The translations under genes and the position numbers were made by a program. 64,000 nucleotides of DNA from an uncultured Pseudomonadales bacterium (GTDB lineage Bacteria > Pseudomonadota > Gammaproteobacteria > Pseudomonadales > Azotimanducaceae): contig CAZFIA010000005.1 of NCBI GenBank assembly GCA_964519335.1, positions 12,249 through 76,248 on the forward strand, written 5' to 3'. Numbering within the stretch: the stretch's first letter is position 1; every line of letters begins with the position of its first letter. The notes beneath the pieces are model-generated. The model was given only the letters and a program-made list of their open reading frames with translations, made no database searches and was not told where the DNA came from. This document shows positions 4,757 to 42,571 of the stretch, in pieces.

Positions 4757-6418
4757 TTAGCCCGCGGAAGATTGCCGCAGATCAGGTAGCTGATAGCCTT
4801 TTGCGTCGAGATCTGCACGAACAACTTTCTTATCCATCTTGCCCGTAGTGGTAAGTGGAATGGTGTCGATGTAGAGCACTTCGTCGGGCAGCTGCCATTT
4901 AGCGAAGGCGGTGGCGCAATGATCGAGCACTTGTTGTTCGCTCACCTCAGCACCTTCTTCAAGAACAATGAGTGCTACCGGCCGTTCATCCCATTTCGGA
5001 TGCGGCTGCGCGACGACGCATGCCGCGGCGATGCCTTTGATTGCAACAATGTGGTTTTCGAGATCCACTGAAGAGATCCACTCACCGCCGCTTTTAACCA
5101 GGTCTTTGGAGCGATCGCTAATAATGAGGTATTCGTCAGAATCAATCTTTCCGACGTCGCCAGTGATGAGCCAGCCATCGTGAAATTTCTCAGGTTGCGG
5201 ATCGTTGTAGTACTCGCTGCAAATCCACGGACCTCGTATCAATATTTCTCCGACGCTCTCGCCATCATGAGGCACGCGATTGAACTCCTCGTCAAATATG
5301 TCGAGCTCAAGGCCCGGCATGAGTTGACCGGCTTTGGCAACGTTTTCGAATTGATCATCTTCACTAAGCTCAAGATGTTGTCGCGTCATTACGCGGCGTG
5401 AAAGAGTGGCGAGGGGGCTGGTTTCGGTCATGCCCCAACCCTGAATCATCTCTACGCCGAGTGTGTCCCAATACCATCGGATCAGGGAAGGTGGTGGTGA
5501 GGATCCGCCGCAAGTGAGTCGCTGCAGCTTGGACAGATCAAGACTCGACGGATCTGCTTCATAAAGAGATTTCACACCTTGCCAGATGGTGGGGACACCA
5601 GCAGACAGCGTGACGCCTTCATCGGCCATTAAGCGAGCGAGTCGCACTGGATCCATGAAGCGATGGGGTAAAACTTGCTTTGCCCCAAGCATAGTTGCGC
5701 TCCAGGGAATGCCCCAGCCCATGGCATGAAACATAGGCACAATACCGCATATAGAGTCGGCGCCTGAAAGCCCCATCGAATCAGTCATGCACTGCGTCAT
5801 GGTATGTAGGTACTGCGAGCGATGCTCGTACTCAACGCCTTTTGGATTACCCGTAGTTCCACTGGTGTAGCACAAACCCAGTGGCGAATTCTCGTCGATC
5901 TGAGGCCAACCGAAATCAGTCGGCTTGCCGGTAATAAAATCTTCGTAATCTTGAGCACCGGGCAGGTCGCTGGACCAACCCTCGAAGCCCTCTTCAGTCG
6001 CAACGACAACCTTTGCGACACTAGGCATGCGCCCTTTCAATTTCTCGAGCAGAGGCAAGACATCGGCATCAACGATGATCAGCTTGTCTTGCGCATGATC
6101 GATAATGTACTCAAGGTCATTATCGGACAGCCTGACATTCAGCGTGTGCAAGACCGCGCCCATACATGCGATCGCGTGGTAAGCCTCGAGATGCCGAGAG
6201 CCGTTCCACATGAACGTCCCCACACGATCGCCAACTTCTATTCCCGACTCTTTGAGTGCATGAGCCAGCTGATGGGCTCGATTACGGGTCTGTAGATAGG
6301 TTTGGCGTCGAACGCCTTTCTCTGTCGCCGTCACGATCTCTTCGTTCGGCGCAACCTTCGCTCCCCGATCCAGCAAATTCGACATGAGCAGAGGTGTTCG
6401 CTGCATTGCCATAGTCAT
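4757..6418 (-). CDS. AMP-dependent acyl-CoA synthetase (fatty-acid--CoA ligase family)
   Basis: AMP-binding motif YTSGTTGNPKGV, plus GWGMTE and a C-terminal TGKMDKK. I chose the start at ATG 6418, preceded by AAAAGGGGGA (Shine-Dalgarno) on the minus strand. The track ORF begins 10 codons earlier. Confidence 0.85.
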   Translation of the reverse strand: MTMAMQRTPLLMSNLLDRGAKVAPNEEIVTATEKGVRRQTYLQTRNRAHQLAHALKESGIEVGDRVGTFMWNGSRHLEAYHAIACMGAVLHTLNVRLSDNDLEYIIDHAQDKLIIVDADVLPLLEKLKGRMPSVAKVVVATEEGFEGWSSDLPGAQDYEDFITGKPTDFGWPQIDENSPLGLCYTSGTTGNPKGVEYEHRSQYLHTMTQCMTDSMGLSGADSICGIVPMFHAMGWGIPWSATMLGAKQVLPHRFMDPVRLARLMADEGVTLSAGVPTIWQGVKSLYEADPSSLDLSKLQRLTCGGSSPPPSLIRWYWDTLGVEMIQGWGMTETSPLATLSRRVMTRQHLELSEDDQFENVAKAGQLMPGLELDIFDEEFNRVPHDGESVGEILIRGPWICSEYYNDPQPEKFHDGWLITGDVGKIDSDEYLIISDRSKDLVKSGGEWISSVDLENHIVAIKGIAAACVVAQPHPKWDERPVALIVLEEGAEVSEQQVLDHCATAFAKWQLPDEVLYIDTIPLTTTGKMDKKVVRADLDAKGYQLPDLRQSSAG

Positions 6419-6490: not shown

Positions 6491-6620
6491 GAAAATTCAG
6501 GACAGCCAAGCATTTCGACCTGAACGGAATATTCGAGACCGGAAAATCGAGGACAGCCAAATATTGCGCTTCGAAACGGGCGATTCCGCTGGAGCAGAAA
6601 CCTGGATGTCCCAAATTCTC
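6491..6620. repeat. dispersed GGACA(G/T)CC repeat cluster (3 copies, + + -)
   Basis: GAAAATTCAGGACAGCCAAG (6491-6510), GAAAATCGAGGACAGCCAAA (6542-6561), and reverse-strand GAGAATTTGGGACATCCAGG (6601-6620). Confidence 0.85.
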
Positions 6621-10331: not shown

Positions 10332-11056
10332 TGTGAGCTACTAGTCTGAGCCTTACTTTGGCCGGCGAAAAAATTCACCAACCAATGCCCCATAACAGAC
10401 TGGTCAATAGAATGAGAGAGCGAATCTAACCCCGATTCAAAAACCTCTTCACCCAGAAGGTCCTTTCGGAAAGTCATGAGTGATCGCGCGTATTCCCTTC
10501 GAAACTCTGGATGTCCTTGAATCGTCAAAGTGTGATTACCTACCGTAAAGCCTGCGTTTGGGCAAAAAGTGTTGGTAGCGTACAAGGTGGCGTCGGGAGG
10601 CAGCTCGAGCACCTGATCCTTGTGACTTGATAGCAGACTCAATCGCTCCGTGGGAGGCGTCATCCAATAGTCATCTTCAATAATGTCACAACTGTGTACA
10701 CCTACAGCCCAACCTTCTTCCGCAGCGCCCACCCTACCTCCAAAAAAGTGGGCAACAAGTTGATGACCAAAACAAATTGCGGCCAATTTTATCTCTTGTT
10801 CTCTTAGTTGGCCGACAAAGTCCACCAGAGGGGGAATCCATGGAAGGTCATCGTAAACACTGTCTCTCGAGCCAGTGATTAAGTAGCCGTCGCACTGCGC
10901 CGGGTCAGGAACGTTGCCGCTTTGAACATCGTAGACACTGATTTGTAAAGAAGGATCAGCGCTGAGCAGTAGATGCTCAAACATATCGGGATAGTCTCCA
11001 TGTTCCGCGATGAACTCATCTCGTACTGAGTCGACTTTTAGTATTCCTAAATGCAT
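10328..11056 (-). CDS. class I glutamine amidotransferase-like protein (GMP synthase-type GATase domain)
   Basis: 242 aa with the catalytic triad context LAAICFGHQL (Cys) and GHPEF (His). Confidence 0.8.
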   Translation of the reverse strand: MHLGILKVDSVRDEFIAEHGDYPDMFEHLLLSADPSLQISVYDVQSGNVPDPAQCDGYLITGSRDSVYDDLPWIPPLVDFVGQLREQEIKLAAICFGHQLVAHFFGGRVGAAEEGWAVGVHSCDIIEDDYWMTPPTERLSLLSSHKDQVLELPPDATLYATNTFCPNAGFTVGNHTLTIQGHPEFRREYARSLMTFRKDLLGEEVFESGLDSLSHSIDQSVMGHWLVNFFAGQSKAQTSSSH

Positions 11057-11200
11057 GGAAACATCCGACAGTTATATTCGGGAATGGACAATCAGGAGAT
11101 CGCCTCAGTTCCCACGCATTCTGCCCAGCGAAGGAATCGAGCGCAAAGAAGAGATCAGATGGCTCTGCTGGCTTATCCCAAGCGATCTGCTATCTCAGGA

Positions 11201-11257
11201 TCGATTTCTGGACAGCCAGGTTTTGCACGATCTCGCTAGAAATATTGGACAGCCGAC
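11201..11257. repeat. dispersed GGACA(G/T)CC repeat cluster (2 copies, + +)
   Basis: GATTTCTGGACAGCCAGG (core 11210-11220) and GAAATATTGGACAGCCGAC (core 11247-11257). Confidence 0.8.
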
Positions 11258-12544: not shown

Positions 12545-13291
12545 TCAATGGAAAACATGTTCAAAACCACGCAGCGCCAGAAAGGAAATGTTGTCTCGAG
12601 CGGGCCGAGAAAGTGCAAGCTCAATAAGCTCGGACGCGGCAACCTCAAGGTCAGGTTGAGTGAGTATTTTACCTATTTCGCAATCAGCCACTTCACGATA
12701 CAAGCCATCTGTGCAAAGAAGTAAAGTGTCTGTCGACTCCAGGTCAAACACCGCAATGTCCAGTTCAAGGGGGCGCCGTCCGCCAACAGACCGAGTTATG
12801 ATGTTTGTATTAGCAGCAAGAGCTTCATCCTCAGTTATCGCCCCAGAATCGAGTAGATCAGCTATCGGGTTATGGTCGCGGGTGACCACCTTCAGGCAAC
12901 CACGACGCAATCGATACAAACGACTATCACCGGCCCAGAGGACCACACCTGTCGTACCTTCGATAGTTAGGCTCACCACCGTAGACCCAATAACGGCGGA
13001 AGGCCCTATCTCCTTTGCCTGTTTACGCAGCGATTGATGCGTGATTACCAACCGATCTTCAATCCAGTCCACTCGATCAGCGAGCGTATGACCCGTCTTT
13101 AGATCCGAAGGTTCGGGTACCAAGGCTTCGGCGACCGAACGACTGGCTACCTCACCCGCCGAATGGCCACCCATCCCATCTGCGACCACCCAAATAGATT
13201 CTCTGGTGCAGGCCATCACAGCGTCCTCATTGACCCGCCGACGGTTTCCCGGATGGGTCCGACTCGCTGAAAGCCAGGGCCGCTCATGCAT
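12545..13291 (-). CDS. PP2C-family Ser/Thr protein phosphatase (Stp1/PrpC-like)
   Basis: Motifs RRVNEDA, VADGMGGHSAGEVAS and LLLCTDGL. I chose the start at ATG 13291 (MHERPWLSAS...). The track ORF extends 41 codons further upstream. Confidence 0.85.
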   Translation of the reverse strand: MHERPWLSASRTHPGNRRRVNEDAVMACTRESIWVVADGMGGHSAGEVASRSVAEALVPEPSDLKTGHTLADRVDWIEDRLVITHQSLRKQAKEIGPSAVIGSTVVSLTIEGTTGVVLWAGDSRLYRLRRGCLKVVTRDHNPIADLLDSGAITEDEALAANTNIITRSVGGRRPLELDIAVFDLESTDTLLLCTDGLYREVADCEIGKILTQPDLEVAASELIELALSRPARDNISFLALRGFEHVFH

Positions 13292-13434
13292 GACTAAACC
13301 TGAGCGTGTTTTCGGAGGAAGCATGTAGGCCAGGCAGGACCAGATCAGGGCAGATAGGTAAACCTCTGCAGAAACTCGCATTAGGCTGGCCCGCACATCG
13401 AAACATGCGACCACACCAATACAAAGCTAGTTCA

Positions 13435-13703
13435 GGACATCCAAGATATGGCTTCTTAGTGAAGTGTTCAGATGTTAGGGAGTCCATCAGCACTCCTTGT
13501 CCAATAGAAGTTTTTAGAGCAAATCGAACGCACCGCGCAATCCCGTGGCGCATGAGTATCTACTGAGAGCATAGGTGAGCGTCGCCGCGAGAAATGCGAC
13601 CCCGTTCACAGTGGCTACCAGATAAGGACATCCATCGAACGCTGACTGCAAATTCCATCGAGTTGATTAACGTTTATGGGCGAACCAAAGCTGGACATCC
13701 AGA
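13435..13703. repeat. dispersed GGACA(G/T)CC repeat cluster (3 copies, all +) upstream of the RayT-like gene
   Basis: GGACATCCAAG 13435-13445, GGACATCCATC 13625-13635 and GGACATCCAGA 13693-13703. A possible degenerate GGACAATC copy lies at 13746-13753. Confidence 0.8.
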
Positions 13704-13780
13704 CTTCGCTCCTTGATTCGTAACAGAACACAACCTTAACGCTATGGACAATCTCTTAAGGTCATTCGAAGCAACGTCCT

Positions 13781-14764
13781 ATGAAAAGCGAAATCTCACT
13801 GACGCATTATTCGTCCATGACTTACCCTCGAGCCCACCTCGTAGATCAAAAAAATGGCGGTTACTACCACTGCATTTCTCGTTGTGTTCGTCAATCCTGG
13901 CTTTGCGGGACCGATCATCAGAACGGGAAATCTTACGAGCACCGACGCGGCTGGATCGCCAGTCGAATTCAGCTTCTAACCAACCTATTCGCCGTCGACG
14001 TGTACGCCTACGCGATAATGAGCAACCACTACCACATAGTGGTTAGGCTTGACCCAAAAAGAACTAATAAATGGACAGACAAAGACATTGTTGATCGTTG
14101 GTTAGCAAGATCGGGTACAAAGAAATCAAAGAGATATCTCCGCGAACAAAGTAAACGTCTTCTCGAACAGCCCAATAAAATCAATCAAATCAGAAGTCGA
14201 CTAGGCAGTCTCTCCTGGTTCATGCGCTTCATCAATGAACCCATCGCTCGCAGTGCTAACGCCGAGGATGAATGCGCTGGACGGTTTTGGGAAGGCCGTT
14301 TCAAATCTGTAGCGCTGCTCGACCGGACGGCTTTGTTGGCTTGCATGGTTTACGTGGACCTAAACCCTGCAAGAACTAGTTCCAGAGCCAAGATTCCCTC
14401 CCTCCACACCAGTGCGCATCAGCGTGCTCGAAATAGTAAGAAGAAGCTGGCCAATTTTGAAGATATAGACACAACTCTTAGGGAGTACGTCGATTTACTT
14501 CGTTGGACTCGAATACAAAACCAGAAAGCGGAAGATCAAACAGCGACGAGTAAACCAAACCTACTAGATAGCATCAACCAAGATTCACAAAATTGGTTGC
14601 AATGGGTTAGCTCTTTTTCCTATTGGTATCGGGCGTACGGTTTGAGAAGAGCTCTCGATAACTACACTCTAAAACTCGGACAGTGTTGGCTACAAACACC
14701 CGAGTTGAGGAAAATGGATTTGGGTAACAGGCCTGGGTTTGGTCGCGCGACCGCTAGTGCATAA
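13781..14764 (+). CDS. REP-associated tyrosine transposase (RayT/TnpA_REP)-like HUH Y1 protein, long form
   Basis: 327 aa. It carries GGYYHCISRCV, the HUH motif in MSNHYHIVV and a YVDLNPAR segment, typical of IS200/IS605-type Y1 transposase domains of the RayT group. An alternative start lies at ATG 13817 (MTYPRAHLVD). The gene looks visibly more A/T-rich than its neighbours. Confidence 0.8.
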   Translation: MKSEISLTHYSSMTYPRAHLVDQKNGGYYHCISRCVRQSWLCGTDHQNGKSYEHRRGWIASRIQLLTNLFAVDVYAYAIMSNHYHIVVRLDPKRTNKWTDKDIVDRWLARSGTKKSKRYLREQSKRLLEQPNKINQIRSRLGSLSWFMRFINEPIARSANAEDECAGRFWEGRFKSVALLDRTALLACMVYVDLNPARTSSRAKIPSLHTSAHQRARNSKKKLANFEDIDTTLREYVDLLRWTRIQNQKAEDQTATSKPNLLDSINQDSQNWLQWVSSFSYWYRAYGLRRALDNYTLKLGQCWLQTPELRKMDLGNRPGFGRATASA

Positions 14765-15608
14765 AGTTGAACATTCGCCTTCGGAAGGTAGTTGCCAGCG
14801 CATTTCCCTGAGGCAATAAGTCAAAAATTCTCAACATCGTAAGCCGACCAATGTCGTCTCTAAATTTTCGATCTGCGCAGAGAATTTCGAGTGCAGACTC
14901 TAGCGCCTCCTCGATCTTGTTCTCAGCCGCGTAGCAAACTGCCAGGGAATACTGGGTCTCTAAATCCCCTGTTTTTTCAGAAAGCTGTTCCTTCAGAGCG
15001 TCCAGATCACCGAGATCGGATGCTTCCTCAACAAATAAAAGCCGCGCCCGAGGACGAGCAACGTCGGGAACATCGTCACCTATCCCAGCCAATACTGACT
15101 TTGCCTCATTGGTATTTCCCAGAAGGATCAACACATCAGCTAACTCAACCCGAAACGCAGCGTTTCCGGGTTCTTCTTCGATGGCGCTCTTTAAGATAGC
15201 CAGCGCAGCATCAAAATCCTTAGTCTCGAGCAAATCAGCAAGTTGCTCCTTCAACACCTCGGCACTAGAAAGCGTAAGCCGATCGCACAGCGCAATTAGG
15301 GCTTCTTCGGGCTGCGGGCCGTCTATCTGCTCCAACAACTGACCATCTTTGACTACTCGAATACTTGGCAGCGTCTGAACCTGAAGGTGCTGAGCGAGAG
15401 ACTGATCTGATGCGACGTCAACGAGAGCAAGCAGGACTTTTCCCGACCGCGCGTTTACCTGGGTGTCCAAAAAATCACGGGCAGCTACCGTTTCCGGCAT
15501 CTGCTCGGCCCAAAACAATACGATGACGGGAAGCTCGTTCGAACGCTCGATGACATCGGATTGGAAGTTCTGTGGATCGGCCGGAAAGACTGAAGGAATC
15601 GCGTTCAC
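14754..15608 (-). CDS. cnoX: thioredoxin-domain/TPR co-chaperone (YbbN/CnoX family)
   Basis: 284 aa. An N-terminal thioredoxin-like domain without a CxxC (PVIVLFWAEQMPE) is followed by TPR-like helices. GPQPEEAL matches E. coli YbbN. Confidence 0.8.
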   Translation of the reverse strand: MNAIPSVFPADPQNFQSDVIERSNELPVIVLFWAEQMPETVAARDFLDTQVNARSGKVLLALVDVASDQSLAQHLQVQTLPSIRVVKDGQLLEQIDGPQPEEALIALCDRLTLSSAEVLKEQLADLLETKDFDAALAILKSAIEEEPGNAAFRVELADVLILLGNTNEAKSVLAGIGDDVPDVARPRARLLFVEEASDLGDLDALKEQLSEKTGDLETQYSLAVCYAAENKIEEALESALEILCADRKFRDDIGRLTMLRIFDLLPQGNALATTFRRRMFNFMH

Positions 15609-15667
15609 TGGATGCTCAATGCCGGGTGTAAACGCCTACTCTAGCAAAAAGGGGGTGCAGAAAGAGT

Positions 15668-15705
15668 AAAGCCAGACGCAGGCTTTTACACCCACGTCTG
15701 GCTTT
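15668..15705. other. perfect 11 bp inverted repeat (hairpin) in the cnoX-MBL spacer
   Basis: AAAGCCAGACG (15668-15678) and CGTCTGGCTTT (15695-15705) are separated by a 16 nt loop. AGTTTTT follows on the + strand. Confidence 0.5.
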
Positions 15706-15902
15706 AGTTTTTGGCCCCTTCCCTGCGGCTCGAGAAGAACAATAGTCGGTTCAACGCGATCCCACATACCCCATCTGGTGTATATCTCTCGAATGAGTGA
15801 ACAATTCGTACGGTGATAAGGTCTTCCAGGAGACAAAACGGCGGGGATAAGTGGCGGTTTGAGAACAACCAGGCAAGGCCCCTAACGATCGTTCTGAAAA
15901 TC

Positions 15903-16055
15903 TGGACATCCAACATCTAACTTGGAATTGCCTGGATGTCCAATATTCCACCTCTTGGGAATTCCTTGGGGCCAGTATTTGCTCTTTGCTTAGCTGTCCC
16001 GAATTGCCCTCTTTGCTTGGCTGTCCCGAATTGCCTGGCTGTCCCGAATTGAACC
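15903..16055. repeat. dispersed GGACA(G/T)CC repeat cluster (5 copies: an inverted doublet plus a 26-27 bp tandem array)
   Basis: TGGACATCCA 15903-15912 and its exact complement TGGATGTCCA 15933-15942. Tandem units CTTTGCTTAGCTGTCCCGAATTGCCCT (15984-16010), CTTTGCTTGGCTGTCCCGAATTGCCT (16011-16036) and the partial unit GGCTGTCCCGAATTGAACC (16037-16055). Confidence 0.88.
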
Positions 16056-24379: not shown

Positions 24380-24564
24380 GGACATCCAACAACTGTGAGA
24401 ATTCGGGACAGTCAGGATTTACCCACCATCAGAAAATTCAAGTTGAAGTGCCCGGGAATCCCCAAAACAGCCGCTCGTTCCTAAATCTTGGATGTCCTGA
24501 TCTCCTCTAAATCTTGGATGTCCTGATCTTCGCTGGATGTCCCGATCTGCGTCCCGATCTCTGC
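24380..24564. repeat. dispersed GGACA(G/T)CC repeat cluster (5 copies, including a 26 bp tandem array)
   Basis: GGACATCCAAC 24380-24390 and GGACAGTCAGG 24406-24416 on the + strand. Tandem units CTAAATCTTGGATGTCCTGATCTCCT (24481-24506) and CTAAATCTTGGATGTCCTGATCTTCG (24507-24532) are followed by decaying partial units up to 24564. Confidence 0.88.
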
Positions 24565-29076: not shown

Positions 29077-29152
29077 TGGTGGGACGTCTGGGGTTCGAAC
29101 CCAGGACCAACGGGTTAAAAGCCCGGTGCTCTACCAACTGAGCTAACGTCCC
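29077..29152 (-). tRNA. tRNA-Lys (anticodon UUU)
   Basis: The reverse complement GGGACGTTAGCTCAGTTGGTAGAGCACCGGGCTTTTAACCCGTTGGTCCTGGGTTCGAACCCCAGACGTCCCACCA folds as a cloverleaf. The anticodon loop is CTTTTAA, the T-loop is GGTTCGAA, and CCA is encoded. It is very similar to E. coli tRNA-Lys. Confidence 0.95.
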
Positions 29153-29302: not shown

Positions 29303-29338
29303 AAATCATGGCTGTCCAATAAATCATGGCTGTCCAAG
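29303..29338. repeat. dispersed GGACA(G/T)CC repeat, 2 x 18 bp tandem
   Basis: AAATCATGGCTGTCCAAT (29303-29320) and AAATCATGGCTGTCCAAG (29321-29338), located between the queC stop and tRNA-Lys. Confidence 0.85.
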
Positions 29339-40900: not shown

Positions 40901-40963
40901 GTTGATAATTCCTTGAGTTAAACCGGAAGATTCTCGCGAACCTTGCGCACGCAGTTTAGACGT

Positions 40964-40996
40964 TCTGCGCTATATCTGCGCTATATCTGCCCTATA
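40964..40996. repeat. 3 x 11 bp perfect-phase tandem repeat upstream of aspS
   Basis: TCTGCGCTATA TCTGCGCTATA TCTGCCCTATA, located 64-96 nt upstream of the aspS start codon (minus strand). Confidence 0.8.
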
Positions 40997-41067
40997 AAGG
41001 GCGATGCTGAAGATGATAGGCGATGCCGCAAGGCGTGATCAGACAGGCCAGCAGGACGCCACTTCGA

Positions 41068-41469
41068 TCAACTAGAGGTTTTGCTGGTCTTCTTGCCGCC
41101 GCTCTTGGCGCCATTCTTACCCGAGCTGGACTTGCCGCTCTTGCCGGATTTGTCATTCTTGCTGGTTTTGTCGCTATTGGCAGATGACGCAGAATCCGAG
41201 CCCCCAGAGGACGACTTCTCGGAGGAATCTGAAGACGAATCAGTTGCGCCATCCGACCCCTCAGTCTTTGCCAAATTCTTCTTATTGCCCGATTTAAAAT
41301 CAGTTTCGTACCAGCCGCCGCCCTTTAAACGGAACCCTGCAGCCGAGATCAGTTTGGTGAGGGATTTCTTGCCGCACTCGGGACACTTCTTGAGGGGCTT
41401 TTCGCTGATCTTCTGTAATGCGTCGAACTGGTGATCACACTTTTCGCACTGGTATTCGTAGATGGGCAT
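41068..41469 (-). CDS. FmdB-family zinc-ribbon protein with a Ser/Gly/Lys-rich tail
   Basis: MPIYEYQCEKCDHQFD...CPECG is the FmdB/CxxC_CxxC_SSSS signature. Roughly the last 70 residues are low-complexity S/G/K/D. Confidence 0.8.
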   Translation of the reverse strand: MPIYEYQCEKCDHQFDALQKISEKPLKKCPECGKKSLTKLISAAGFRLKGGGWYETDFKSGNKKNLAKTEGSDGATDSSSDSSEKSSSGGSDSASSANSDKTSKNDKSGKSGKSSSGKNGAKSGGKKTSKTSS

Positions 41470-41782
41470 ATGGTTATTGGTGTTCTGTTACTAGTTGTCA
41501 CTTGGTTAGCAGCCACATTCTTTTAGAAAAAGAGCCTTTTCAGTTGCGCAGCCACAATCGATTAGGCCAATTATGGCGGTTTTTTATTTATTTTTGGCGT
41601 CTTTTCTAACCTATGCAGAGTAAATTAAGAACCCGACCAACAATCCCCGTTGAAACACAAAATTCCACATAAAGCCTGCTTTTTTATTACTGAAACAGCG
41701 CCGAACAAACCAGAAAAAACAACCACTATTGGGGGAAGTCGATAATATCCAGCGATTTCGCTGGTTTTTCTCAATTACGCGC

Positions 41783-41812
41783 TTGCGATATAGGCAAACA
41801 GTAGGCTATAAA
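41783..41812 (+). promoter_or_regulatory. candidate sigma70-type promoter for the HU-like gene
   Basis: TTGCGA (41783-41788), an 18 nt spacer, then TATAAA (41807-41812), about 100 nt upstream of ATG 41915. This is a sequence-pattern match only. Confidence 0.3.
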
Positions 41813-41914
41813 GCGCTCCATCGGTGAGCGCTGAACAAGCGTTAGCTGAAAAAACTTGGACTTAACCTGGTCTGACACACGTCAGACGCTCTCTCCAAAC
41901 TGAGGACATTATTA

Positions 41915-42364
41915 ATGGCACGCAAACCGGCCAAGAAAAAAGCCGCAAAGCGCAAGGCACCCGCCAAGCGCCGAGCACCGGCAAAGAAATCTCGAGCTAA
42001 AGCGAAGAAGAAGACAGCCAGAAAAGCGGCTACTCCGGCTCGCAAACTAACGTCGATCACGAAAAAGATGACAAAAACGCAGATTTACTCTGAACTCGCG
42101 GACAGCACAGAATTGACCCAGAAGCAGGTGGCTTCAGTATTCGACGAGCTTGAAGTACTCATCGAACGCCATATCAAGAAGCGCGCGGTTGGAGAATTCA
42201 CCCTACCCGGTCTCTTAAAGATCAAGTCAGTGAAGCGTCCTGCTACCAAGAAGCGTCTCGGTCGCAACCCGGCTACCGGCGAAGAGATCTGGATCGGGCC
42301 CAAGCCTGCTTCAATCCGCGCTCGAGTTACCGCACTGAAGAAGCTTAAGGAAATGGTGGGCTAA
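41915..42364 (+). CDS. HU/IHF-family DNA-binding protein with a Lys/Ala/Pro-rich N-terminal extension
   Basis: The C-terminal ~95 aa match the HU fold (MTKTQIYSELA..., GEFTLPGLLKI, R.GRNP.TGEEI.I). The first ~50 aa are AKKKAAKRKAPAKRRAPAKK-type repeats. SD-like GAGGA lies 8 nt upstream of the ATG. Confidence 0.85.
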   Translation: MARKPAKKKAAKRKAPAKRRAPAKKSRAKAKKKTARKAATPARKLTSITKKMTKTQIYSELADSTELTQKQVASVFDELEVLIERHIKKRAVGEFTLPGLLKIKSVKRPATKKRLGRNPATGEEIWIGPKPASIRARVTALKKLKEMVG

Positions 42365-42448
42365 CCGCCGCGAGCCTTCCTTAACTCCCCACAATTGGCG
42401 GAGATAGAGCCTAAATTCGCAAGAATTCCCGGTTCTGTAGCAACAAAA

Positions 42449-42482
42449 GGGCTGCTGAGACTCGTCTCACAGCCCTTTTTTC
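42449..42482 (+). terminator. Rho-independent terminator downstream of the HU-like gene
   Basis: GGGCTG(C)TGAGAC...GTCTCACAGCCC forms a GC-rich hairpin followed by TTTTTT. It is preceded by AAAA, so it may act in both directions. Confidence 0.7.
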
Positions 42483-42571
42483 TGTTTCGCAGCCTGCTAA
42501 GCCCTTAAACTTGCGCCCAAAGCTCGCAGCAAAGGCGGGCCAACCCCACCAACTAATGGAACCTACCCGCC

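Follow-up and report, generated by a model that had tools for sequence, protein, structure and literature searches.

The RayT-like gene and its site

The window, meaning the whole analysed stretch of 64 kb, carries a single copy of a gene for a RayT-like protein (13781-14764, + strand). The frame is open over 327 codons and encodes S-N-H-Y-H-I-V-V at residues 81-88 (HUH codons 14027-14035), the W motif F-W-E-G-R-F at residues 169-174 and a Y-V-D-L-N-P-A-R segment, of which Y-V-D-L-N-P forms residues 191-196 and includes a catalytic-type tyrosine, Tyr191 (codon 14351-14353). The 327 aa protein with an NHYHIVV motif and a YVDLNPAR segment that an earlier note on this DNA had described is thus borne out. 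An alignment with 19 homologues (alignment A1) shows H83, H85, W170 and Y191 to be invariant and, because it also shows a conserved N-terminus (MTYPRAHL), the true start is probably M13 at 13817, which would give a protein of 315 aa.

The protein remained below the cutoffs of the two family models NCBIfam NF047646, REP_Tyr_transpos (28.1 bits, cutoff 80), and Pfam PF01797, Y1_Tnp (15.7 bits, cutoff 23), and PDB sequence searches with the single protein and with a profile returned zero matches. An AlphaFold model (pLDDT 76, pTM 0.77) predicts the Y1 HUH fold, with the HUH motif in a sheet/helix core and the catalytic Tyr placed in a C-terminal helix. The best PDB match of the model in a Foldseek search is 4ER8_A (probability 1.0, TM 0.64 on target), E. 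coli RayT bound to a REP hairpin, followed by 2EC2, 2VHG, 2XO6 and 2F4F (IS608, ISDra2 and IS200 transposases). Extra helices are modelled at 92-163 and 211-299, and the HUH and W motifs are 85 aa apart compared with ~30 in E. coli RayT. By analogy, the gene would encode a HUH/tyrosine enzyme that nicks and joins single-stranded DNA and has additional inserted and C-terminal domains; in motifs and length it fits subclass 2.3 of TnpAY1.

The gene is followed on the opposite strand by cnoX (14754-15608, -; thioredoxin plus TPR), which overlaps its 3' end by 11 nt. The site is conserved, with FHA/PP2C genes divergent from the gene upstream and cnoX convergent with it downstream, in relatives down to 53% protein identity. 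The dN/dS ratio of the gene is 0.07-0.12 at a dS above 1 (1.1-3.2 across relatives), similar to that of cnoX. The gene is under purifying selection, is vertically inherited and has long been resident in the window lineage.

With a GC content of 47.4%, the lowest in the window, the gene is indeed more A/T-rich than its neighbours (48-56%), as the earlier note had remarked, but the difference is small and its GC3 (48.8%) lies within the neighbours' range (44-66%). The low GC content and the mobility of related elements in Shewanella (see below) might indicate that the window copy is a recently acquired, active insertion sequence. This is hardly credible, since relatives down to 53% protein identity carry the gene at the very same site, GC3 is ordinary, the right end of the element is absent, the 3' end is overlapped by cnoX and there is one copy in 64 kb. 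The several near-identical copies in different contexts that characterize an insertion sequence were not found in the window, whose one copy occupies a site that is fixed across relatives. Recent horizontal transfer was rejected in view of the conserved synteny and GC3, and the horizontal acquisition that the note had proposed is not supported by the shared site or by the dN/dS values.

Copies of the GGACAKCC repeat in the window

The exact sequence GGACAKCC occurs 30 times in the 64 kb, compared with 4.07 +/- 1.96 times in shuffles (maximum 9). About 19 out of the 30 copies are intergenic, in a window in which intergenic DNA makes up 13%. The extended consensus, A-R-W-T-Y-N-GGACAKCC-A-R-N-N-W-W-T, lacks GTAG, and single units and the direct array fold as single-stranded DNA no better than shuffles, in agreement with the claim that the repeat has neither the GTAG tetranucleotide nor the long hairpin of described REPs. 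An inverted doublet at 15896-15950 alone folds well (10-bp stem, z = -3.8) and resembles a REPIN. The only Rfam match in the window is a tRNA. Three known types of binding site, compared with the repeat consensus and the array spacings, were rejected: the sigma-54 site (spacing off by 2 nt), the Pho box (repeated every 11 nt, in contrast to the 18-27 nt of the arrays) and the CsrA site, whose GGA motif fails for the variants with K = G.

Upstream of the gene GGACATCC is found on the + strand at 13435, 13626 and 13693. The left array has two copies of GGACATCCA: one at 13626-13634, 183 nt before the start at 13817, which the relatives L001 and L088 share at the orthologous position, and one at 13693-13701, 116 nt before the start, which is retained in L001 and L003 and is degenerate in L005. 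The third GGACATCCA (13435-13443) precedes the start by 374 nt and falls within an FHA-domain ORF that has decayed (13284-13553, -) and in which it encodes G-C-P. Three upstream copies in the same orientation had been reported and are confirmed, except that the second begins at 13626 rather than 13625 and that the copy at 13435 is not part of the spacer. A degenerate copy, GGACAATC, is present on the + strand at 13747-13754, 63 nt before the start, at the position of the canonical left-end copy of the family (median 81 nt before the start, see below); it is this canonical copy that has decayed to GGACAATC in the window lineage.

Downstream, beyond cnoX, a cluster contains exact copies at 15904 (+), 15934 (-), 16019 (-) and 16037 (-) and a copy with one mismatch, GGACAGCT, at 15992 (-), so that the five copies, four of them in the opposite orientation, with only cnoX between them and the gene, are as previously noted. 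The first two form an inverted doublet (15904-15941) of GGACATCCA (+, 15904) and TGGATGTCC (15933-15941, -), 21 nt apart, which is also found in the relatives L001, L003, L005 and L088. The other three form a tandem array on the - strand (15982-16053; cores GGACAGCT at 15992 and GGACAGCC at 16019 and 16037; periods of 27 and 18 nt) between the stop codon of the MBL gene and a 17-bp terminator-like hairpin. This cluster is not the canonical right end of the family. That end, expected ~190 nt past the stop codon, is missing in the window lineage and was lost from the window copy because cnoX overlaps the 3' end of the gene.

Further copies are dispersed over other spacers: at 6500 (+), 6551 (+) and 6604 (-) within 6500-6611; at 11210 and 11247 (both +, 11210-11254); at 24380 (+), 24406 (+, GGACAGTC), 24490, 24516 and 24535 (all -) within 24380-24542; and, as the rightmost intergenic copies, two on the - strand 18 nt apart (29310-29335), which adjoin the tRNA gene at 29080-29152. 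The cluster at 24380-24542 has orthologous clusters in L001-L005 and L088, and its layout (two copies on the + strand facing three on the - strand) is the same as that around the genes of the family. Overall, 28 GGACAKCC copies fall within 1-30 kb and two within 30-64 kb, and all strong copies lie within ~28 kb around the gene. Both controls, the 30-64 kb part of the window and a 50-kb stretch of E. coli, contain the motif at chance level. A replication origin or terminus was rejected as the cause of the regional clustering, the GC skew being negative throughout the window without a switch. A strand switch at 41-42.5 kb lies between aspS and proS.

The relatives retain motif copies at the orthologous places in their spacers despite dS values above 1 and diverged flanks. 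Such copies, retained under saturated synonymous divergence, could also be binding sites selected by the host and not products of transposition. A broader alternative is that the HUH protein has been domesticated as a sequence-specific DNA-binding or DNA-nicking host factor (e.g., in regulation, replication or repair, or local chromosome organisation) and that GGACAKCCA now marks operator-like sites, derived from element ends, no longer mobile and maintained by host selection as a regulon-like or domain-like set. The persistence of copies across dS values of 1.1-3.2, a gene kept at one site with a dN/dS of ~0.1, the confinement of strong copies to ~28 kb around it, with none in 30-64 kb, and the presence of promoters or 3' UTRs in every copy-holding spacer all agree with this idea. 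We nevertheless consider it unlikely: the copy numbers at orthologous spacers differ among relatives (e.g., 2 to 5 in the cnoX-MBL spacer), which implies ongoing gain and loss; the adjacent genes have no common functional theme; and the invariant HUH and Tyr residues argue for retained catalysis rather than binding alone.

In copy density the two spacers on either side of the gene do not exceed five others, located between 6 and 30 kb, and the bracketing of the gene would therefore not be significant within the window alone. The similar copy density of these five spacers, together with a short conserved core in phased AT-rich flanks that is reminiscent of a protein-binding site or an uptake signal, would suit a repeat that is unrelated to the HUH gene (for instance one bound by a transcription factor or a nucleoid protein, or one resembling an uptake signal) and lies close to it by coincidence.

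Association of the gene and the repeat across the family

Related loci from many gammaproteobacterial genera (68 loci) were searched with the pattern RGACAnnC over 700 bp on each side of the gene. The W motif (WE) and YVDLNP are present in 64 out of 64 family ORFs. Carriers of the gene with complete genomes include Hahella sp. NBU794 (NZ_CP192738.1), Marinomonas sp. PE14-40 (NZ_CP130700.1), Marinobacter nauticus and Shewanella metallivivens. Upstream of the gene 86 copies are on the + strand and 8 on the - strand, and downstream 88 are on the - strand and 3 on the + strand, such that 174 out of 185 flanking copies obey a single orientation rule. The two 700-bp flanks contain on average 2.72 copies for the gene versus 0.57 for 407 control ORFs from the same loci. 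A + copy is located 55-100 nt upstream in 44 out of 64 loci (chance expectation ~1.4) and a - copy 160-240 nt downstream in 49 out of 69 loci (chance expectation ~2.7), with the nearest copies at median distances of 81 nt from the start codon and 189 nt from the stop codon, respectively. Position +8, which lay outside the search pattern, is A in 51 out of 57 left-end and 54 out of 61 right-end copies, and the family core can be written RGACA[C/G/T][C/T]CA (RGACAnCCA). The orientation rule, the fixed distances from the start and stop codons and several loci in which the motif is found solely beside the gene cannot be coincidence. With the mobile unit in Shewanella that ends in the motif, they make an unrelated host motif highly improbable.

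Gene-adjacent and dispersed copies co-vary within a genome: proximal and distal copies match at 8.3 out of 18 variable positions within a genome and at 5.8 between genomes (permutation p < 0.0002, ignoring differences in base composition). The dispersed copies occur at ~1 per kb in the +/-10 kb loci of relatives. Among doublets away from the gene direct pairs dominate (88), and convergent pairs (17) exceed divergent pairs (7) as a trend only. Flanking by opposed copies on both sides is seen family-wide; in the window just the left array adjoins the gene and the opposite copies follow beyond cnoX. An independent metagenome locus (L201) has the same gene-repeat layout. It was the only gene-bearing locus in a metagenome scan for tandem arrays (two GGACAKCCA separated by 8-38 nt), whose 120 matches consist largely of chance pairs of two copies or of tandem repeats within coding sequence and are uninformative as a test of the reverse association. 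In the 190-nt 3' spacer neither an RNA nor a small ORF nor a hairpin proved to be conserved: blastn and tblastx comparisons of distant loci align the terminal repeat only, and the presence and position of perfect hairpins vary from locus to locus.

The element is mobile in relatives of the window gene. In Shewanella it forms a multicopy unit of 1.27-1.29 kb bounded by an inverted repeat of the RGACAnCCA type. Two loci from different Shewanella species (L030 and L039) have just 1272 nt in common, from -71 to +219 around the gene, and two further loci (L050 and L062) hold four or more copies. The Shewanella relatives thus show the near-identical copies in different contexts that define an insertion sequence.

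The explanation that accounts best for these observations, and that we consider likely as a whole, is a subclass 2.3 gene that was fixed long ago together with its family's terminal repeat, here GGACAKCC(A), and whose repeats have since dispersed. GGACAKCC(A) would be the version of the subclass 2.3 terminal repeat in the window lineage. On the gene strand the family unit begins with WWWnnRGACAnCCAY in one to seven direct copies, the innermost ~80 nt before the start codon, and it ends, after a spacer of ~190 nt behind the gene, with one to eight copies on the opposite strand. This architecture, with its orientation rule and fixed distances, is observed directly in the related loci. In the window lineage the element appears to have been fixed between the FHA/PP2C genes and cnoX; the right end and the innermost left copy have been lost, and the gene has been kept under purifying selection with its catalytic residues intact. 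Solo copies, short tandem arrays and inverted doublets of the end repeat would have spread into the spacers, and a few genes, of the ~30 kb around it, analogous to the REP/REPIN populations that a domesticated RayT serves in trans. By analogy with RayT and the IS608 TnpA, the protein may bind and nick at or beside the repeat, the arrays may act as multiple binding sites and the dispersed copies may have been made or maintained by the window HUH protein. The link between a RayT-like gene and a non-canonical repeat that the earlier note had proposed is, in this form, supported by the opposed arrays, fixed distances and co-variation at the related loci rather than by the window.

For the maintenance of a short-repeat population by a domesticated transposase, RayT-type proteins and REPs are the textbook case, and to our knowledge all mechanistic knowledge of this system rests on the recognition of a hairpin plus GTAG. 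The present data provide subclass 2.3 with a candidate DNA partner, marked by a 9-nt conserved core, a strictly kept orientation and constant spacing to the gene, and the question of its substrate becomes directly testable with oligonucleotides and one purified protein. The mobile members in Shewanella and the anciently fixed member in the window lineage form a natural series from an active element to a domesticated gene with satellite repeats. Tentatively, and with somewhat less conviction than doubt, subclass 2.3 and its RGACAnCCA arrays may represent an unrecognised type of Y1 HUH element with hairpin-less array ends, a length-constrained 3' spacer of ~190 nt, a 1.3-kb mobile unit and, after domestication, REP-like satellites mainly near the gene. 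In that case there would be two structurally distinct modes by which HUH/tyrosine enzymes recognise their DNA substrates. For genome annotation, short intergenic arrays of the RGACAnCCA kind should not be taken as regulatory sites by default.

Comparison with known systems

The best structural match of the window protein, E. coli RayT (TnpAREP, yafM), has collinear HUH, W-x-x-RF and Y-x-x-x-NP segments, but the window protein is twice as long and reaches 28 bits against the NCBIfam cutoff of 80. Like the RayT of the REPtron, the gene is single-copy and vertically inherited; extragenic dispersal of a short repeat and inverted doublets that form hairpins, as in REPINs, are also common to both, and opposed flanking repeats are common to RayT and the family as a whole. 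Unlike REPs, in which GT[AG]G stands at the foot of an imperfect palindrome, the unit has no GTAG and no intrinsic palindrome, and its dispersal appears regional in the window. With the IS200/IS605 transposases (IS608 and ISDra2 TnpA) the protein shares the predicted Y1 HUH catalytic fold, and the relatives of its gene make up compact, single-ORF mobile units of ~1.3 kb; the ends of IS200/IS605 elements are subterminal hairpins on one strand without inverted repeats, whereas the family described here has inverted repeat arrays and no hairpins. Every Y1 HUH transposase studied to date recognises hairpins, as far as we know, and the lack of a hairpin in single units counts against recognition of the repeat. 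Multiple direct copies at each end, with the two ends mutually inverted, are also a feature of Tn7 and Mu, whose ends each contain several direct sites of ~20 bp. Their transposases are DDE enzymes that act on double-stranded DNA and have no homology to the window protein.

Subclass 2.3 of TnpAY1 was defined with HuH = NHYH, W = WE, Y = YVDLNP, a median length of 325 aa, an insertion of ~55 aa that separates beta3 from alphaC and a C-terminal tail in two parts (PMC6006769, Table 1 for motifs and length). The window protein has identical NHYH, WE and YVDLNP motifs, a length of 327 aa, a long insertion between HUH and W, a long C-terminal tail and a gammaproteobacterial host. In that work, the largest comparative study, Quentin, Siguier, Chandler and Fichant (2018) sought GT[AG]G plus a hairpin by automatic and manual searches; no REP-like sequences were found for subclass 2.3, no repeat was assigned to subclasses 2.1 and 2.3, and their function was left open (PMC6006769). 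Among the papers searched, none links subclass 2.3 to a repeat. The genes studied here differ from the published description in that they are flanked by inverted arrays of hairpin-less RGACAnCCA, and the window copy is single and anciently fixed whereas the paper describes multicopy, recently spreading members (PMC6006769).

TIRYTs or TIRtrons (Di Nocera, De Gregorio and Rocco 2013; PMC3733652) likewise combine a RayT-like gene with terminal inverted repeats that are not REPs, at similar distances from the coding sequence (family-wide; the window keeps the left side only), and some of their TIRs belong to families dispersed as dimers or clusters, as observed here. They differ in that their ends are single TIRs, in contrast to direct-repeat arrays, and share GGGGWSAS, with which the core RGACAnCCA(Y) overlaps only in GGACAS. 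Furthermore, the TIRYTs described so far belong to subclasses 2.1, 2.2 and 2.5, and none to 2.3, according to Quentin et al. (PMC6006769). The closest described kind is the TIRtron/TIRYT (PMC3733652) together with subclass 2.3 (PMC6006769), rather than a REPtron proper.

The HUH protein and the repeat in the window

The open reading frame at 13781-14764 (+), described in the earlier note as a RayT-like HUH transposase gene with a YVDLNPAR segment, is real and codes for S-N-H-Y-H-I-V-V, F-W-E-G-R-F and Y-V-D-L-N-P-A-R. In an alignment with 19 homologues the residues H83, H85, W170 and Y191 are invariant and the conserved protein opens at MTYPRAHL; the true start is therefore probably at 13817. 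The protein scores below threshold for both Pfam Y1_Tnp (15.7 bits, cutoff 23) and NCBIfam REP_Tyr_transpos (28, cutoff 80). The proposed comparison with the RayT-REP complex was made with an AlphaFold model (pLDDT 76, pTM 0.77), for which the top PDB match is E. coli RayT with bound REP hairpin (4ER8_A), followed by the IS608, ISDra2 and IS200 transposases. Motifs, length and a long HUH-to-W insertion match TnpAY1 subclass 2.3, which has the signature NHYH / WE / YVDLNP and a median length of 325 aa (Table 1, Quentin et al. 2018, PMC6006769). That study required GT[AG]G plus a hairpin and reports that subclasses 2.1 and 2.3 yielded no REP-like sequences in either automatic or manual searches (PMC6006769).

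The GGACAKCC motif occurs 30 times in the window (4.07 +/- 1.96 in shuffles), with about 19 copies falling in intergenic DNA (13% of the window), and belongs to a unit of about 21 nt (A-R-W-T-Y-N-GGACAKCC-A-R-N-N-W-W-T). The repeat coordinates reported earlier are correct overall, with the copy given as 13625 really at 13626. The three copies said to fill the upstream spacer exist, the one at 13435 lying inside a decayed FHA-domain reading frame, and the array has an additional degenerate fourth copy at 13747; all five downstream copies are present, the fifth, at 15992, carrying one mismatch. As single-stranded DNA, neither single units nor the direct array gave a fold; a 10-bp stem does form in the inverted doublet 15904/15934 (z = -3.8). 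Copies are just as numerous in five other spacers, located between 6 and 30 kb, as in the two spacers that adjoin the gene, so a link between gene and repeat cannot be established from the window alone.

Strong copies (GGACA[N][CT]CA), about 12 of them intragenic, all lie within 1741-29335, roughly 15 kb to either side of the gene, and the motif is at chance level in the window from 30 to 64 kb. At its right edge the copy-rich region meets a tRNA gene (29080-29152, -), and GC rises there from about 0.52 to about 0.56. GC skew indicates no replication switch. Repeat-like units with typical AT-rich flanks at 6125-6132 and 10509-10516, within the AMP-binding and GATase genes, are kept at the same codons in relatives (L001-L005); they may have been inserted in frame or may reflect coding coincidence.

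Gene and repeat across the family

A scan of species-representative genomes yielded 80 loci (L006-L085) with subclass 2.3-type genes at 38-49% identity from many gammaproteobacterial genera. Every complete reading frame contains YVDLNP and FWE, and the median length is 325 aa. GGACACCCA or a close variant of it is the most frequent 9-mer in the 20-kb stretch at many of these loci, and its flanks are species-specific. When copies were counted per locus as the most frequent 8-mer fitting [AG]GACANNC, the 700 bp upstream of the gene held 86 copies on the gene strand versus 8 on the opposite strand, and the 700 bp downstream held 88 on the opposite strand versus 3 on the gene strand. Both flanks together average 2.72 copies, versus 0.57 for 407 control reading frames from the same loci. 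Distances are likewise fixed: in 44 of 64 loci the nearest upstream copy has its end 55-100 nt ahead of the start codon (median 81; about 1.4 loci by chance), and in 49 of 69 loci the nearest downstream copy starts 160-240 nt past the stop codon (median 189; about 2.7 by chance). Position +8, outside the search pattern, is A in about 90% of left-end and of right-end copies, and a single consensus, WWWnnRGACACCCAY, therefore serves both ends.

Several loci carry copies solely beside the gene, and others have dispersed units at a density of about one per kb. Within one locus, copies close to the gene match distal ones at 8.3 of 18 variable positions, versus 5.8 for copies from different loci (permutation p < 0.0002, uncorrected for base composition). 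Averaged over 38 full loci, there are 2.55 copies per kb in the first 0.5 kb from the gene and 0.16 per kb at a distance of 7.5-10 kb; a few copy-rich loci dominate this average, which, with the confinement of strong copies in the window, hints at preferentially local spread. The layout of gene and repeats recurs in an independent metagenome locus (L201), and the motif is at chance level in a control 50-kb E. coli stretch including rayT. Orientation, fixed distances and co-variation within genomes support, at family level, the proposed tie of the RayT-like gene to the repeat, and we consider it very likely that gene family and repeat are linked.

The interval from the stop codon to the first right-end repeat (about 190 nt, IQR 175-207, in L006-L085; e.g., L064:10922-11213, L033, L084) is conserved in length across genera and variable in sequence, and is absent in the window. 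Among the family loci, this spacer showed no conserved small reading frame, no similarity by blastn or tblastx and no hairpin that recurs consistently.

Four metagenome contigs with unrelated GC backgrounds (0.44-0.71; L132, L155, L122, L135) carry arrays of GGACA[T/C]CCAC units whose flanks are particular to them (e.g., CTAACTGGACATCCACACTAAG); in L155, 11 units make up an 18-nt tandem array. No HUH gene occurs in the 2-12 kb covered of these contigs.

Mobile and immobilised members

Around the gene, two Shewanella species have only 1272 nt in common, at 91% identity; this segment runs from -71 relative to the start codon to +219 past the stop codon and lies within unrelated flanking DNA. Two S. 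metallivivens loci likewise have 1286 nt in common (94% identity), one of them with at least three further copies. The common segment ends in inverted AACAAAGACACCCA (GGCCACCCA in S. metallivivens); an IS-like unit of about 1.3 kb, bounded by this repeat, is thus part of the family. Within 12 kb of one S. metallivivens locus (L062:600-12130) the 1.29-kb element is present at least four times, as copies or fragments; two of these abut head to tail at 11200, which suggests that the mobile form inserted in tandem or in nested fashion.

The copy of the window lineage is fixed and immobilised. Homologues of 77, 68, 65, 59, 56 and 55% identity occupy the same chromosomal site, with the shared order GATase, (FHA) PP2C (-), HUH gene (+), cnoX (-), MBL, bamC, dapA, and dN/dS among these orthologues is 0.07-0.12 (dS 1.1-3.2), the same regime as cnoX. 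The gene had been called A/T-rich and hence possibly horizontally acquired; its GC content is indeed low (47.4%), but its GC3 (48.8%) falls in the range of its neighbours. Given the conserved site, the cnoX-like dN/dS and the unremarkable GC3, recent acquisition is not supported.

The left array is retained on the gene strand: three copies remain, at -374, -183 and -116, and the one at -63 has decayed. Because the 3' end of the HUH gene runs 11 nt into cnoX, the right end is lost. The cluster on the opposite strand beyond cnoX (15934-16044) lies 1.2 kb from the stop codon, resembles other dispersed clusters (e.g., 24380-24542) and is best read as a member of the dispersed satellite population. 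On this reading, the bracketing described earlier holds for the adjoining left array but not for this cluster as the right end of the element. Orthologous positions in relatives hold copies despite saturated synonymous divergence, with varying flanks and copy numbers; site selection, continual regeneration or both could account for this.

At 13284-13553 (-), an open frame of 89 codons is what remains of the FHA-domain gene, which in relatives stands ahead of PP2C and is 122 aa long in L086 and L088. The N-terminal ...GCPEL... and C-terminal ...RFSHA survive in this remnant, the FHA core being gone, and the repeat copy at 13435 codes for its G-C-P, as in L088. The kinase and ShlB genes of L086 and L088 are also lost from the window lineage. 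Between the remnant and the HUH gene, the block CATAGGTGAGCGTCGCCGCGAGAAATGCGACCCCGTTCACAGTGG (13560-13615) is kept in L001, L005, L086, L088 and L090 within an otherwise diverged spacer and may be a promoter, operator or small RNA. The 190 nt upstream of cnoX (15609-15800) are well conserved in relatives and include a terminator-like hairpin with a 17-bp stem (15667-15706, -) and a conserved GGCCCC(T/G)TCCCTG(C/G)GGCTC block; this stretch has no Rfam match and may be the MBL gene terminator or a cnoX leader. Elsewhere, the 1.67 kb between the divergent aspS and proS (40901-42571) contain no reading frame of at least 150 aa and no repeat copies.

Proposed mechanism and known systems

IS608 TnpA and E. 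coli RayT nick one DNA strand in a metal-dependent reaction with a covalent 5'-phosphotyrosine intermediate. Because the HUH and tyrosine residues are conserved on a RayT-like fold, the HUH protein is predicted to nick one DNA strand in the same metal-dependent way, through a covalent 5'-phosphotyrosine intermediate. Each end carries a direct-repeat array, and the two arrays face in opposite directions; this suggests multiple protein-binding sites, perhaps read by subclass-specific domains of the protein. The protein may recognise its DNA as duplex, as single strand or as the hairpins that inverted doublets form. The full statement, in which the protein would also act in trans on the copies dispersed in the window's genome, appears probable to us.

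None of the papers searched was found to assign a repeat to subclass 2.3, and the described TIRYTs belong to subclasses 2.1, 2.2 and 2.5 (PMC6006769). Among known systems the nearest are RayT with REP/REPINs and, as a more exact parallel, the TIRtrons, RayT-like genes flanked by TIRs that share GGGGWSAS; some of these TIRs form dispersed families, as dimers or clusters (Di Nocera et al. 2013, PMC3733652).
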